Source of the DNA: a phage
Sequence record: PZ386957.1
Reading direction: 5' to 3' (one strand)
Length of the DNA: 64,000 bases
The notes under the pieces were generated by a model. The model had not been told where the DNA came from. It saw only the letters and a list, made by a program, of their open reading frames with translations, and did not search any database. Shown here piece after piece: positions 15,398-39,592 of the stretch (its first letter is position 1; each line of letters begins with the position of its first letter). Both the position numbers and the translations under genes were made by a program.

Positions 15398-15428
15398 AAT
15401 ATAATCCTCTCGTTGTTTAGATGGGAGT

Positions 15429-15457
15429 ATCTTACTACTCCCGTTTCATCATGTCAA
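15429..15457 (-). promoter_or_regulatory. Promoter TTGACA-17-TAAGAT, -10 inside inverted repeat GGGAGTAG...TACTCCC
   Basis: Minus-strand read upstream of 14219-15397. Confidence 0.6.
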
Positions 15458-30429: not shown

Positions 30430-30700
30430 ACGGGATTTCTTTAAACTTGAACTTACCCATATTGAGCATATTCACGCCGACACTTAAATCCCATAATTCT
30501 TTTGGGGTGATAATATGCCATTGATGGTCATGAAGATAAACACAACCGTGGCCTTTTGCAATAATAACATCAACCCAAATGCCTTGTTTTGTTCTAACTT
30601 TTGCGGTAATGCCATCCCCATTATCAATGGCAGCATAAGGTTTAAACGCTTCGAAATATCGGCTTCCGTCGTAATTTGTATAAATCAAAATTTCTTTCAT
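30389..30700 (-). CDS. Hypothetical protein
   Basis: 103-aa ORF after promoter/stem-loop 30728-30757. Confidence 0.5.
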   Translation of the reverse strand: MKEILIYTNYDGSRYFEAFKPYAAIDNGDGITAKVRTKQGIWVDVIIAKGHGCVYLHDHQWHIITPKELWDLSVGVNMLNMGKFKFKEIPFVYWLHNLFKKGE

Positions 30701-30727
30701 TTGGTTCTCCCTTGTTTCGATGGGGGT

Positions 30728-30757
30728 ATATTACTACCCCCCGTTTCATGTTGTCAA
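30728..30757 (-). promoter_or_regulatory. Promoter TTGACA-18-TAATAT, -10 inside inverted repeat GGGGGTAG...TACCCCC
   Basis: Minus-strand read upstream of 30389-30700. Confidence 0.55.
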
Positions 30758-31018
30758 CTACTTTTTCAAGAATTTTTTAATTGCGTTCCAAAGACCTTTA
30801 TTCTCAGGTTGTTTTGGTTCTTCGATCAGTGTCCATGTTCGACCGTCTAAGTGTGCACAATTTTTAAGGCAAATAAAAATCTGGTGTCCCTTATCATCAC
30901 GGATATAACCACTATTCGCAAATCTTTCATGTGGTGTATATTCATACAGTGTATTTGGTGTAATATACTTGCGGTTACTATAAGGTGTCATCACATACAT
31001 CATGGTATTAACTCCCAT
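30758..31018 (-). CDS. Small protein, paralog A
   Basis: 86 aa; shares Y.FTP...GYI.DD.G..I.I.L..C.HL.G..W.LI pattern with 31000-31194. Confidence 0.5.
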   Translation of the reverse strand: MGVNTMMYVMTPYSNRKYITPNTLYEYTPHERFANSGYIRDDKGHQIFICLKNCAHLDGRTWTLIEEPKQPENKGLWNAIKKFLKK

Positions 31019-37091: not shown

Positions 37092-37120
37092 AATAAAAAA
37101 GCCACTCCGAAGAGTGGCTT
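37092..37120 (-). terminator. Intrinsic terminator capping the ORF-free region
   Basis: AAGCCACTC-TTCG-GAGTGGCTT then TTTTTTATT. Confidence 0.7.
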
Positions 37121-37269
37121 ATAGGGAAGGTAGCGAATCTTCCTTGTCTCCAACCTGCTAGCGGCCTAGCAAGTGAATGCTTTAGCGTACCGGATTACCC
37201 CCATACGCTGTAATAAATGCGGCTAGGTGACGTCCAAATCATTCTAACCGCGCTGTTTTTAGTTCACTA
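37121..37269 (-). ncRNA. Putative structured small RNA (ORF-free, terminator-capped)
   Basis: About 150 nt with no ORF on the coding strand; several local hairpins; ends in intrinsic terminator 37092-37120; T4 carries stable RNAs in the analogous region. Confidence 0.25.
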
Positions 37270-37488
37270 TTATTTATATAGCTTTCTATCGCTACGTTTC
37301 CGGTCTTCTTCCTTGATACAATTAAATGCATCAAACAGACACATACCGCTGATAGTGAACATGATCAGGTTTTCGACGATATCCCACGTTTTAGCCCCTG
37401 TGCAGATATTCCAAACAGTCATAAAAGCAAATAGTGCAGAAGAGATCACAAGCATGATACTTGCTAAGATATAAAAAGTCATTTTCAT
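37270..37488 (-). CDS. Small membrane protein (2 TM)
   Basis: 72 aa hydrophobic. Confidence 0.5.
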   Translation of the reverse strand: MKMTFYILASIMLVISSALFAFMTVWNICTGAKTWDIVENLIMFTISGMCLFDAFNCIKEEDRKRSDRKLYK

Positions 37489-37679
37489 GGTTTTACCTCA
37501 ATTCTTCGATATTCATCACACATCCACGCAGTAAGCAAGAATCCCATCACATAAGCAACAAAATACGTTAATGCTTCTTCTGGTTCGGTGCTATGCGCCA
37601 TCATCAGACCAGCGAGAAAGGTCTTAACAATTACATTTAAAATAATTAGCCACGCAAATAATTTCATCGTTTGCCCCAT
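37485..37679 (-). CDS. Small membrane protein (2 TM)
   Basis: 64 aa hydrophobic. Confidence 0.5.
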   Translation of the reverse strand: MGQTMKLFAWLIILNVIVKTFLAGLMMAHSTEPEEALTYFVAYVMGFLLTAWMCDEYRRIEVKP

Positions 37680-37906
37680 TTCGGACGAGATTTTTCAAAT
37701 TTATACATTCCGTAACAATCTCGGATCATCCACGTAACAAGAGCACCAGTCAATACAGAAAGTACACAGAAAAAGTAAAACGGTCCAGTTGCATTGTCAA
37801 CATGAGCAAGCCAGGTAAAGAAAGCACATGCTAAGAACGTAAAGAACATCATAAAACACAGGAAAGCGAAATATTTTATGCTACTCATAGCGCCACCATA
37901 CAACAA
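37664..37906 (-). CDS. Small membrane protein (2 TM)
   Basis: 80 aa hydrophobic. Confidence 0.5.
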   Translation of the reverse strand: MLYGGAMSSIKYFAFLCFMMFFTFLACAFFTWLAHVDNATGPFYFFCVLSVLTGALVTWMIRDCYGMYKFEKSRPKWGKR

Positions 37907-37991
37907 ATCATAAGAAAGCCCAACGCAATAAGAATTGCATCAAATTTAGTGAACTCCGGTCCACCTATCAACATCATTCGTTCTATCTCGT

Positions 37992-38237
37992 TCATAGCGT
38001 ACATACCCATCTGAAAGCTCCACATAAAGCGATCAGTAGACTAGGTATAAACGAGACTAAAACAAGATAACAAAAATCATCTAAGGTAACACCGGAATAG
38101 CTACCAACTGTAATCACACCGATGATCAGACACAGAAAGAAAACAAATGCAATCAGAAACAAAGTATTGCTAAACAGTTTAGTGATCATTAGACACCCCA
38201 CGACGGTCAATTTCAAAAACTTTCTTATCACCAACAA
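37992..38237 (-). CDS. Small membrane protein
   Basis: 81 aa hydrophobic; start may be internal. Confidence 0.45.
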   Translation of the reverse strand: MLVIRKFLKLTVVGCLMITKLFSNTLFLIAFVFFLCLIIGVITVGSYSGVTLDDFCYLVLVSFIPSLLIALCGAFRWVCTL

Positions 38238-38388
38238 AGCAGGTCACTACCGCCTCGTTGACTTCCGCAAATTGTTGTGTTACCCACTTAAGGTCATTGC
38301 GCATCAATGTTTTATTAATAACAAATGTTGTGCCTTTCTTATCCTTACCCATAAATTTTGCTTTAACCACATCAAAATCATATTCCAT
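38179..38388 (-). CDS. Hypothetical protein
   Basis: 69-aa ORF. Confidence 0.45.
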   Translation of the reverse strand: MEYDFDVVKAKFMGKDKKGTTFVINKTLMRNDLKWVTQQFAEVNEAVVTCFVGDKKVFEIDRRGVSNDH

Positions 38389-38397
38389 ATTATCACC

Positions 38398-38568
38398 TTA
38401 TTTGCTAATCGCTAAACCCAATCCAAAGAGAGCACCCGATGCTACAGTATATCCGAAAGTTTCAAGGGCAGTAAAGATATCGAAGCCACCAGCTAACAGA
38501 GTTGCAGCAAACATAGAGCCACCTGCGAACATAAACACATTTCCAAAAGTTTTAGCAATAATTTTCAT
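38398..38568 (-). CDS. Small hydrophobic Gly-rich peptide (56 aa), unannotated in track
   Basis: Hand-translated MKIIAKTFGNVFMFAGGSMFAATLLAGGFDIFTALETFGYTVASGALFGLGLAISK; RBS AGGAGAA 6 nt upstream; promoter 38600-38628. Confidence 0.55.
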   Translation of the reverse strand: MKIIAKTFGNVFMFAGGSMFAATLLAGGFDIFTALETFGYTVASGALFGLGLAISK

Positions 38569-38599
38569 GTTGATTCTCCTCTCGTTTGTTTGTGGGGGT

Positions 38600-38628
38600 A
38601 TCTTACTACCCCCGTTTCATGTTGTCAA
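38600..38628 (-). promoter_or_regulatory. Promoter TTGACA-17-TAAGAT, -10 inside inverted repeat GGGGGTAG...TACCCCC
   Basis: Minus-strand read upstream of the 56-aa peptide gene. Confidence 0.6.
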
Positions 38629-38634
38629 TTGTTT

Positions 38635-39012
38635 TTAAGAAAATTTTACTTCGTCTACAATGTCTTTCATGACATTGATTTCCATTCCGGTCAGAACACG
38701 TTGGAACATGTGCTGCACATACGCTTTCAGGTATCCATTTGATGGCTTGCTATCAAAAGTCTTTTTAGTGTAGTAGTCATCACCGAAAGCTACTGTAATT
38801 ACATTTTCGTCGTCGTTCCAAGCGATATAAGCAAATTTGCCGTTATCCCAGAAGCGAGCACTAATTGCTACTTTTGTTGAATCGAATCCTACTTCGCTGT
38901 GAGATTCAAGAACTACTTGCGTGCCAGTTTCTTTATGAATGTAGTAGCGGGATACTAAGTCAAAGTTACGGGTGTAGTGACATTCGAAGTTATCTTTAAA
39001 CATCATCATCAT
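38635..39012 (-). CDS. Hypothetical protein
   Basis: 125-aa ORF starting MMMMFKD after promoter/leader 39051-39079. Confidence 0.55.
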   Translation of the reverse strand: MMMMFKDNFECHYTRNFDLVSRYYIHKETGTQVVLESHSEVGFDSTKVAISARFWDNGKFAYIAWNDDENVITVAFGDDYYTKKTFDSKPSNGYLKAYVQHMFQRVLTGMEINVMKDIVDEVKFS

Positions 39013-39050
39013 TTTTGATTCTCCTAAGTGTGTTTCGTTTCGATGTGTGC

Positions 39051-39079
39051 ATTATGCTATAGTCGTTTATGGTTGTCAA
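39051..39079 (-). promoter_or_regulatory. Promoter TTGACA-17-CATAAT with GCACACATCGAAACGAAACACAC leader
   Basis: Minus-strand read; downstream of terminator 39085-39115. Confidence 0.65.
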
Positions 39080-39084
39080 CACCT

Positions 39085-39115
39085 AAAAACAAAAAACCCC
39101 GAAAAAATTCGGGGT
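39085..39115 (-). terminator. Intrinsic terminator after 57B
   Basis: ACCCCGAA-TTTTTT-CGGGGT then TTTTTTGTTTTT. Confidence 0.7.
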
Positions 39116-39121
39116 ATAGAA

Positions 39122-39592
39122 TTACAGTTTGGTCGTCCACTCCAGATCTAGATCTTCGACATACTCATGAGATCGGACAATCTCTAAATCGAACTCTAGG
39201 TCAGTGCCAAATTTACGCGCACCAACATCATAAGAAAGCGTGATATGCGGTACATATTCAGGATAATCCCACGTCGCACCTAAAGCAGTTCCGATATCGT
39301 GTCTGAATTGCATGTAGTCGCTTTCAAATGCCAGCACAAGTGCATTAGTACCGGATTGAGTTTCAAACACTTTCAGATGGCATAGAGAGCCTAAGAACTT
39401 CTCCCCTTCTTCTGGGATAAACGGAACATAAACACGAGAATATAAGATAGTGCTATGCAGTTTATCACGAGGAACGGCATTAGGAAGATCGTAGAACTCT
39501 TGCAATTTTTCAATGCGGTCTAGTGTATCCTCAGTGAATTTAACCGCCGCATATGTACCTTTAACGGATTCTTTGAACGGGGTCATAATCAA
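39122..39592 (-). CDS. 57B: 2H phosphoesterase (gene 57B position; Acb1-like)
   Basis: 156 aa; two H-x-T/S-x motifs (LHSTIL, PHITLS) diagnostic of the 2H superfamily; located upstream of 57A/1 as in T4. Confidence 0.7.
   Translation of the reverse strand: MIMTPFKESVKGTYAAVKFTEDTLDRIEKLQEFYDLPNAVPRDKLHSTILYSRVYVPFIPEEGEKFLGSLCHLKVFETQSGTNALVLAFESDYMQFRHDIGTALGATWDYPEYVPHITLSYDVGARKFGTDLEFDLEIVRSHEYVEDLDLEWTTKL

Follow-up and report, generated by a model that had tools for sequence, protein, structure and literature searches.

Does a short open reading frame in the AT-rich genome of a phage encode a protein and, if so, of what kind? This question is raised by a frame of 56 codons at 38398..38568 on the minus strand of a DNA stretch of 64,000 nucleotides, in the following referred to as the window, which a first-pass annotation had described as an unannotated gene for a glycine-zipper-like, membrane-active peptide equipped with a promoter and a ribosome binding site of its own. 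The frame starts with ATG, and the translation of 56 aa reported at that time is identical to the one given for these coordinates in the ORF list. As this list contains 51 ORFs of at least 30 aa per 5 kb of the AT-rich DNA, an open frame of 56 codons is by itself not beyond chance. What is beyond chance is the conservation of the frame, not its length.

A 1.2-kb piece around the ORF matched 59 full-length phage records with a nucleotide identity of ~93%, and all of these are Krischvirus records, e.g., RB49, phi1, JSE, GEC-3S and ECD7. The window stems from a Krischvirus, i.e., an RB49-like T-even phage. The peptide itself was detected by tblastn in 59 of the 59 Krischvirus records with 73-76% amino acid identity, and in such records the ORF is annotated as a CDS, nearly always for a "hypothetical protein" and once for a "putative membrane protein". 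The ortholog in RB49 is RB49p124 (RB49 ORF124, NP_891695.1), a protein of 52 aa encoded between a 125-aa ORF and dmd. RB49p124 has the same start, Shine-Dalgarno (SD) sequence, position and upstream regulatory cassette (termed PeSL, see below) and exhibits 73-75% amino acid identity to the window peptide over its entire length. The two proteins hardly differ in their C-terminal 30 residues, while the window allele is set apart by a 4-residue insertion and clustered substitutions in the first of two predicted helices (helix 1). An ORF between the 125-aa ORF and dmd is present not only in RB49 but also in TB34, JEP8, Makalu_001/003, MIZ4 and PHB13, and the order 125-aa ORF, peptide ORF, dmd likewise occurs in GEC-3S, W115, G37-3, ECD7 and four metagenome contigs.

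Outside this group of phages the family was not encountered. A word-index search covering 5.8 billion clusters matched three clusters, all of Krischvirus type, and a profile HMMER search against 1.84 billion representatives returned nothing except the family itself and two clearly spurious repeat proteins. No paralog is present in the window or anywhere in the genome of RB49. With PHROG 16462, a family of unknown function, the peptide aligns from residue 6 to residue 56 (profile positions 2-52 of 52, E 4.3e-25), and it thus belongs to a genus-restricted family of ORFans to which PHROGs assigns no function. The literature on expression or function of small Krischvirus genes yielded no transcript, peptide or phenotype for the family. 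The earlier description of the ORF as unannotated was correct for the track on which it was based and does not hold publicly, where homologs appear as annotated CDS in RB49 and its relatives. The gene is already known and has been publicly annotated since deposition of the RB49 genome, and the 56-aa allele of the window is new only as a sequence variant.

Conservation of the reading frame in related phages had been named beforehand as a test for the gene. The comparison comprised 16 sequences, i.e., the window, four metagenome contigs and eleven phages from GenBank. In every case the frame is intact, with equivalent start and stop codons, and the sole difference in length is an in-frame indel of 12 nt. 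Summed over 13 unique sequences, the Nei-Gojobori method yielded a dN/dS of 0.30 for the peptide ORF, as compared to 0.43 for dmd, 0.09 for the upstream 125-aa ORF and 0.04 for gene 57B. Constraint is distributed unevenly: pN is 0.029 and pS 0.140 in the C-terminal half (residues 25-56), corresponding to a dN/dS of ~0.2, whereas the N-terminal half, with pN 0.047, pS 0.069 and a pN/pS of ~0.68, is constrained much more weakly. On this small sample of 13 unique sequences, purifying selection on the peptide is best described as moderate. Neither an Rfam family nor a tRNA was found when the locus was scanned for them. Because the frame is intact in 16 of 16 sequences, the only indel is in-frame and dN/dS is about 0.3, we consider the ORF a genuine gene that is very probably protein-coding.

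The minus strand directly upstream of the peptide gene reads GAGAGGAGAATCAAC-ATG and contains the SD motif AGGAG (38576..38580, -) 7 nt before the start codon (38568..38566), as evident from direct reading. This motif is invariant in RB49 and TB34, and the Makalu records list it as a ribosome binding site. Further upstream, a promoter scan, RNA folding and a published definition together delimit a cassette at 38594..38650 (-) that comprises an AT-rich segment, -35 and -10 boxes and a stem-loop. The -35 box TTGACA (38628..38623, -) and the -10 box TAAGAT (38605..38600, -) can be read directly, are separated by a spacer of 17 nt and match the sigma-70 consensus at 10 of 12 positions in the promoter scan. 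The stem-loop GGGGGTA-GTAAGA-TACCCCC (38613..38594, -) has a stem of 7 bp with a G5/C5 run, and its position overlaps that of the -10 box. When folded as RNA, it represents the centroid structure with -14 kcal/mol, and the folded 86-nt segment attains a z of -2.76 against shuffled sequences. The TAA stop codon of the upstream gene (38637..38635, -) lies within the AT-rich segment AAAATTTTCTTAAAAACAA that directly precedes the promoter. The 35-nt pattern formed by promoter and stem is expected by chance 0.00 times in the window. Both the good ribosome binding site and the promoter claimed for the peptide gene, the latter a strong one by its sequence, are therefore present as AGGAG at 7 nt from ATG and TTGACA-17-TAAGAT, respectively. 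The element is nearly invariant among the relatives, and parts of it have been annotated before, as a promoter in the GEC-3S record and, in the case of the hairpin, as a terminator in the G37-3 record.

Cassettes of this kind have been described in RB49 and phi1 under the name PeSL, promoter-early stem-loop (Arbiol et al., 2010, PMC2839356; for a follow-up see Comeau et al., 2014, PMC4122927). According to the original description, a PeSL consists, in this order, of an upstream stop codon in AT-rich DNA, sigma-70 boxes, a polyG/polyC stem-loop, an SD sequence and the ATG of an ORFan, with the stem-loop commonly covering the -10 box or placed in the spacer between the two boxes; 51 PeSLs are listed for RB49 and the elements cluster in hyperplastic regions (Arbiol et al., 2010, PMC2839356). 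They proved to act as strong promoters as well as attenuators, and were proposed to mediate the shuffling of cassettes by recombination, with promoter or attenuator activity and the formation of mini-circles being demonstrated for PeSL206/205, 211/210, 192 and 210 (Arbiol et al., 2010, PMC2839356). All sequence-level features of this definition, i.e., boxes, AT-rich stop, stem-loop and SD/ATG, are found in the cassette upstream of the peptide gene, which falls into the subclass with a stem-loop overlapping the -10 box. Like the published elements it resides in a hyperplastic region, directly precedes an ORFan and is repeated in the genome. As judged from its sequence, this promoter/stem-loop is a PeSL cassette.

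The first-pass annotation had regarded the promoter and stem-loop as dedicated to the peptide. They do exist; dedicated they are not, being one copy of a repeated cassette. A strict pattern matched at least nine PeSLs in the window and 18 in the genome of RB49, without exception on the minus strand, and diverged copies of the intergenic segment in front of the peptide gene, with the same order of elements, are located at 30695-30782 and 15405-15457. The locus is part of a run of ~24 tiny ORFs between the RB49 endolysin gene and 57B, which we take to be the positional counterpart of the e-tRNA-IP region of T4. The predicted start of transcription, ~7 nt downstream of the -10 box, coincides with the 3' edge of the hairpin; transcripts initiated there would therefore be devoid of this structure and begin with an unstructured leader of only 24 nt, rich in A and C. 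The hairpin would be present only in read-through transcripts from the 125-aa ORF, where it may act as an attenuator.

The PeSL also marks a boundary in sequence divergence. The 56-aa allele of the window is distinguished from the common 52-aa allele by an in-frame insertion of 12 nt (38536..38547, -; codons 8-11, FGNV), which was localized by DNA and codon alignments and sits within a short cluster of substitutions in helix 1. The 52-aa allele was found on more than 300 contigs, and the 56-aa type is common to the window and the metagenome contigs L008 and L009. The exact sequence of the window peptide is absent from a collection of 15 billion proteins, in which the nearest sequences (95%) stem from metagenome contigs. 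When window and RB49 are compared, the 125-aa ORF shows hardly any divergence (pS 0.014), while pS amounts to 0.13 for the peptide gene and to 0.20 for dmd, the latter with a pN of 0.125. In 100-nt windows, the drop in identity starts at the PeSL/ATG, and in the alignment differences begin right after ATG-AAA, just downstream of the nearly invariant PeSL. An allele patch beginning at the edge of the PeSL fits an exchange mediated by this element, as a single observation read from alignments.

On the downstream side, the peptide stop codon is followed after 9 nt by the start of dmd (38179..38388, -), which was identified by a match to Pfam Dmd (PF17587, 1.4e-15) and PHROG 2102 and encodes the antitoxin against RnlA/LsoA. 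The SD sequence of dmd (AAGGTGA) overlaps the peptide stop, and the junction reads TAAGGTGATAATATG. Such an arrangement suggests that the two genes are co-transcribed and possibly also translationally coupled. Five further small ORFs of about 36-74 aa, all strongly hydrophobic according to the ORF list and hydropathy analysis, follow dmd (37270..38189, -). They belong to PHROGs 17225, 15282, 15290, 15717 and 15168, all of unknown function, and are CDS in the relatives. An intrinsic terminator with a 9-bp stem, a UUCG loop and a U-tract was located by a terminator scan at 37099..37120 (-); it is conserved in the relatives, with a swap of the UUCG for a GAAA tetraloop in contig L008, and is followed by another consensus promoter. 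The same scan revealed no terminator-like site on the minus strand between the peptide ORF and this terminator. Upstream of the peptide gene lie the 125-aa ORF, which has its own terminator and promoter at ~39050-39115, and 57B, which carries a Pfam Acb1 (anti-CBASS) domain in the relatives. From these elements, an early operon can be proposed that would be driven by host sigma-70 RNA polymerase from the PeSL cassette and would comprise the peptide gene as first cistron, dmd, the five small membrane ORFs and the terminator. Early timing and operon structure are inferred here from promoter and operon calls that represent consensus matches, not mapped RNA ends. One proven counter-defence gene, dmd, resides inside this operon and another one, the Acb1 gene 57B, adjoins it.

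The product of the gene is hydrophobic (GRAVY 1.08), with two hydrophobic segments at about residues 8-29 and 37-55. Its only charged residues are Lys2, Lys6, Asp30, Glu36 and Lys56, the lysines being located at the termini and the two acidic residues at the turn. An AlphaFold model of moderate confidence (pLDDT 69, based on an alignment of four sequences) contains helices at residues 2-26 and 31-54 with a break at Gly27-Asp30. These features agree with the earlier proposal of a membrane peptide, and on the basis of hydropathy and the model the product is very probably membrane-embedded. The two helices are only weakly hydrophobic, with 15-residue Kyte-Doolittle maxima of 1.81 and 1.65 as compared to 1.9-3.3 for the neighbouring small ORFs, so that stable membrane insertion is not certain. 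The two-helix hydrophobic architecture is kept in both the 52-aa and the 56-aa alleles. Most likely, the Gly/Ala/Phe-rich peptide of 52-56 residues would be inserted in the inner membrane of the host, forming a hairpin of two helices. According to the positive-inside rule, both termini, with Lys2, Lys6 and Lys56, should then be cytoplasmic, and the short acidic turn from Asp30 to Glu36 would be exposed at the periplasmic face. Helix 2 is nearly invariant; on it, the small residues Thr41, Gly45, Gly49 and Ala53 form an invariant face in register, which is the likely interaction surface, while helix 1, which tolerates a 4-residue indel and faster change, appears to behave as an anchor or signal-like segment. 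Taken as a whole, the reading that we favour and regard as reasonably probable is that of a genuine Krischvirus gene for a PeSL-driven, early, two-helix inner membrane protein with an accessory role at the envelope.

The signal-like behaviour of helix 1 can also be read literally. Residues 1-28 would then constitute a Sec signal peptide, whose removal would leave a mature peptide of 28 residues, FDIFTALETFGY...AISK, anchored by its C-terminal helix with the N-terminus in the periplasm. The layout of the N-terminal half resembles that of a signal peptide, as an n-region (MKIIAK) precedes a hydrophobic core, and positions -3 to -1 are occupied by A-G-G. Small residues precede the cleavage site of signal peptides (-3/-1 rule), and Ala26 and Gly28 fit this rule; in addition, the break between the helices of the AlphaFold model at residues 27-30 would coincide with the processing site. 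A fast-evolving, indel-tolerant hydrophobic core is typical of signal peptides, and the faster evolution of the N-terminal half (pN/pS ~0.68) with its 4-residue indel in the core, next to a strongly conserved C-terminal half, matches this pattern. On the other hand, this signal peptide was assigned by eye only, and the hydrophobic core comprises ~20 residues, a usual length for a transmembrane helix and a long one for a signal that is cleaved. Moreover, the helix left after processing would have the topology already assigned to it in the hairpin model, from which a processed peptide would differ by only one cleavage. We consider such processing rather unlikely.

Another alternative is a membrane-damaging peptide, the hairpins of which would oligomerize via their small faces into a depolarizing pore or pinhole and thus act as a toxin, a pinholin-like factor or a holin modulator. 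This is close to the first-pass annotation, which had stressed a glycine zipper and a resemblance to toxins, bacteriocin-like peptides and holin modulators. A small protein with two helices that are weakly hydrophobic and contain many Gly, Ala, Ser and Thr residues is in line with such an activity, since the composition recalls that of SAR domains and of the helices of pinholins, and so is the conserved, in-register small face on helix 2. Indeed, pinholin S21 68, class IIb bacteriocins and type I toxins share short length, Gly/Ala/Ser helices and a conserved small face with the peptide. The glycine zipper as such did not withstand closer analysis and is reduced to a composition rich in Gly, Ala and Ser. 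Eight [GAS]xxx[GAS] motifs are present compared to 7.2 expected from composition, and 43% of shuffled sequences contain eight or more (p 0.43); GxxxG occurs once versus 1.25 expected occurrences. The strict zipper patterns (G,A,S)xxxGxxxG and GxxxGxxx(G,S,T), which reportedly go back to Kim et al. in 2005, were both searched in the peptide and neither has a match. The motifs AGGS, AGGF and GLGL that had been quoted as small-xxx-small are in fact i,i+3 spacings. Unlike peptides with glycine zippers or small-xxx-small motifs, the protein thus exhibits no strict zipper, no enrichment beyond composition and no match to a corresponding family.

Comparisons at the family level point in the same direction. 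The proposed likeness to a toxin, bacteriocin or holin modulator found no counterpart in Pfam, NCBIfam, which holds models for type I toxins, or PADLOC at E <= 1, and among PHROGs no holin family but only PHROG 16462 was matched. A fold search against viral structures returned merely generic hairpins with a best E of 1.7, and a 56-residue query at pLDDT 69 cannot discriminate between them; a 2-TMS phage holin, which speaks in favour of a pore, is among these non-significant matches (E 5.4). Unlike class II bacteriocins, the peptide has neither a double-glycine leader nor a transporter or immunity context, its neighbours being early phage genes, and in contrast to type I toxins such as Hok, TisB, Ibs and Ldr there is no family match and no antisense RNA from Rfam at the locus. 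Holins, pinholins and antiholins differ from the peptide by late expression and linkage to endolysin or spanin genes, whereas the gene studied here is preceded by a sigma-70 promoter of the early type and situated beside the early gene dmd, away from endolysin and holin genes. In RB49, the t holin, rI, endolysin and spanins are encoded elsewhere in the genome, such that the phage already possesses t, rI and spanins, and depolarization early in infection would presumably be harmful to the infection itself. In view of the sigma-70 early promoter and of dmd at a distance of 9 nt, a function in lysis timing is disfavoured and an early depolarizing toxin is unlikely. Overall, we regard formation of a membrane-damaging pore as improbable, a step below processing by signal peptidase. 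A relation to the internal proteins of T4, which are targeted to the capsid by an MKTYQEFIAE-like N-terminal sequence with a site for cleavage by gp21, was also considered; the N-terminus of the peptide, MKIIAKTFGNVF, is dissimilar by eye and the protein is hydrophobic throughout.

The tight junction with dmd allows for yet another interpretation, namely that of a regulatory upstream ORF. The peptide would have no function of its own and its translation would serve only to deliver ribosomes to the dmd start or to open this start by coupling. The overlap of the peptide stop with the dmd SD and the 9-nt gap, an arrangement kept in all relatives, would suit such a mechanism. However, dmd has its own SD, and pure coupling does not need the purifying selection on amino acid sequence that is apparent above all for residues 25-56 (pN 0.029 vs. 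pS 0.140), nor the preservation of a hydrophobic two-helix architecture across both alleles, which renders a functionless peptide very improbable. Finally, the idea that the real feature is an antisense ORF of 126 aa starting with TTG (38258..38638, +; ORF list), of which the 56-aa frame would be the shadow, has practically nothing in its favour except a long open frame in the window and most relatives, and was rejected because this frame is itself broken in relatives (interrupted at 69 aa in L010 and L011, shortened in L003) and, crossing the PeSL, runs into the established dmd gene, with no SD noted for it and all flanking RB49 genes from ORF85 to gene 3 being annotated on the other strand.

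Returning to the early, two-helix inner membrane protein as the preferred reading, its possible function has to be approached via the genomic context. The peptide may act early in infection at the envelope of the host, as an accessory factor that is not essential. Candidate roles are superinfection exclusion and, with respect to host defences linked to the membrane, protection or evasion. A function in lysis or killing is less likely, and an envelope or host-interaction role is favoured over that of a lysis toxin because of the early timing and the neighbourhood of dmd and Acb1. Assignment to a functional class of accessory envelope proteins that contribute, e.g., to superinfection exclusion or the handling of membrane-linked host defences is tentative, as derived from timing and neighbourhood.

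Elsewhere in the Tevenvirinae, sp is found in the vicinity of dmd, joined in Mosigvirus by imm. A conserved linkage of dmd with a small transmembrane peptide was considered and rejected, since none of the immediate neighbours of dmd examined in Tequatrovirus, Gaprivervirus and Mosigvirus has a strong transmembrane segment. In these three genera, the genes closest to dmd with products targeted to the envelope are sp, imm and a lipoprotein-like ORF, located one or two genes away, and adjacency of the peptide gene and dmd is specific to Krischvirus among the T4-like genera compared. In RB49, homologs of Imm and Sp were found neither by annotation nor by tblastn; with Imm and Sp as queries against RB49 and the window, the best E was 0.019 and located elsewhere, with nothing at the peptide locus. 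The role of Imm and Sp thus appears to be vacant in RB49. T4 Imm (83 aa), which confers superinfection immunity, is a small, early inner membrane protein with two predicted helices, as is predicted for the peptide. On the other hand, the two proteins exhibit no sequence similarity, the peptide is shorter and much less hydrophobic, and the functional analogy is purely contextual. That the peptide represents a new, Krischvirus-specific early envelope factor, either a two-helix exclusion protein replacing Imm/Sp or a counter-defence protein acting together with Dmd and Acb1, is an unlikely proposition at present, with odds between those given above for processing and for pore formation. If it were true, the variable helix 1 would reflect an arms race.

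In summary, the peptide gene is real but ordinary, i.e., an annotated ORFan behind a regulatory cassette that has been described before. As a discovery it carries little weight, since the gene is publicly annotated and the class of its control element has been published. It does show that ORFs in the window that fell below the cutoff of the annotation track are real genes, and it adds one example of an allele replacement that begins exactly at a PeSL. Beyond that, the locus draws attention to an uncharacterized early operon that would encode six small predicted membrane proteins together with Dmd beside Acb1. For Krischvirus, members of which are used for therapy, this operon would be a sensible place to search for superinfection exclusion or counter-defence at the level of the cell envelope.

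At least nine cassettes of the promoter-early stem-loop (PeSL) type, a class known from RB49 and phi1, are present in the window, all on the minus strand, with -35 boxes at positions 38628, 36796, 36113, 30757, 20268, 19592, 16367, 15457 and 14222. Such a cassette was taken to consist of a TTGACA-like -35 box followed after 16-18 nt by a -10 box, together with a G/C stem-loop, a Shine-Dalgarno sequence and an ATG, and several of them have the translation start region GGAGAATCAA(A)ATG in common. In the putative operon headed by one of these copies, dmd (38179-38388, minus strand) is followed by five tiny consecutive ORFs (37270-38189, minus strand; about 36-74 aa in relatives) that are predicted to form one transcription unit with it. 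The encoded proteins are strongly hydrophobic with one- or two-helix profiles and fall into PHROGs 17225, 15282, 15290, 15717 and 15168, all of unknown function.

About 150 nt without genes (37099-37255, minus strand) separate the last small ORF from the operon terminator, and this stretch has a GC content that is high relative to the rest of the genome. Four or five hairpins are predicted in it (z = -3.43, with equally good folding in none of 200 shuffles), and the stretch is almost unchanged among RB49 and two related sequences (L008 and L010), its conservation exceeding that of the flanking genes. Neither a tRNA nor an Rfam match above threshold was detected in this stretch, which is a candidate for a small stable RNA or a structured 3' UTR. 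The loop of the operon terminator alternates between relatives, being either a UUCG or a GAAA tetraloop.

Within the genus, dmd evolves rapidly (dN/dS 0.43; pN 0.125 for the window vs. RB49) and is annotated at differing length in MIZ4 and Makalu_003, which is consistent with an antitoxin engaged in an arms race. In Gaprivervirus VR20 (L017:859-1176) and Mosigvirus a20 (L018:878-1195) the gene immediately upstream of dmd encodes a conserved soluble protein of 105 aa that begins MKTIDCKAE and has no kinship to the Krischvirus membrane peptide. Where helix 2 of the latter begins, Gly39 (window numbering) gives way to Trp in TB34 and to Val in ECD7 and is invariant elsewhere, so bulky residues are tolerated at this position.

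Upstream of the peptide gene, a 125-aa ORF (38635-39012, minus strand; PHROG 15253) is nearly identical to its RB49 counterpart (pS 0.014) and bears a faint, sub-threshold likeness to Pfam Phage_T4_Gp30_7 (E 0.004). For 57B (39122-39592, minus strand), the RefSeq RB49 product name 'RNA ligase' looks outdated because orthologs in related contigs contain the Pfam Acb1 (anti-CBASS phosphodiesterase) domain. When region 37900-39100 served as query, matches of 90-95% were found in 16 records of Cronobacter, Klebsiella and Enterobacter phages, none of which matched 38179-39012 or 37250-38178. By subtraction, the common piece would therefore be the terminator and promoter region in the gap between 57B and the 125-aa ORF (about 39013-39100, minus strand). 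If this holds true, that piece constitutes a regulatory segment occurring in more than one genus.
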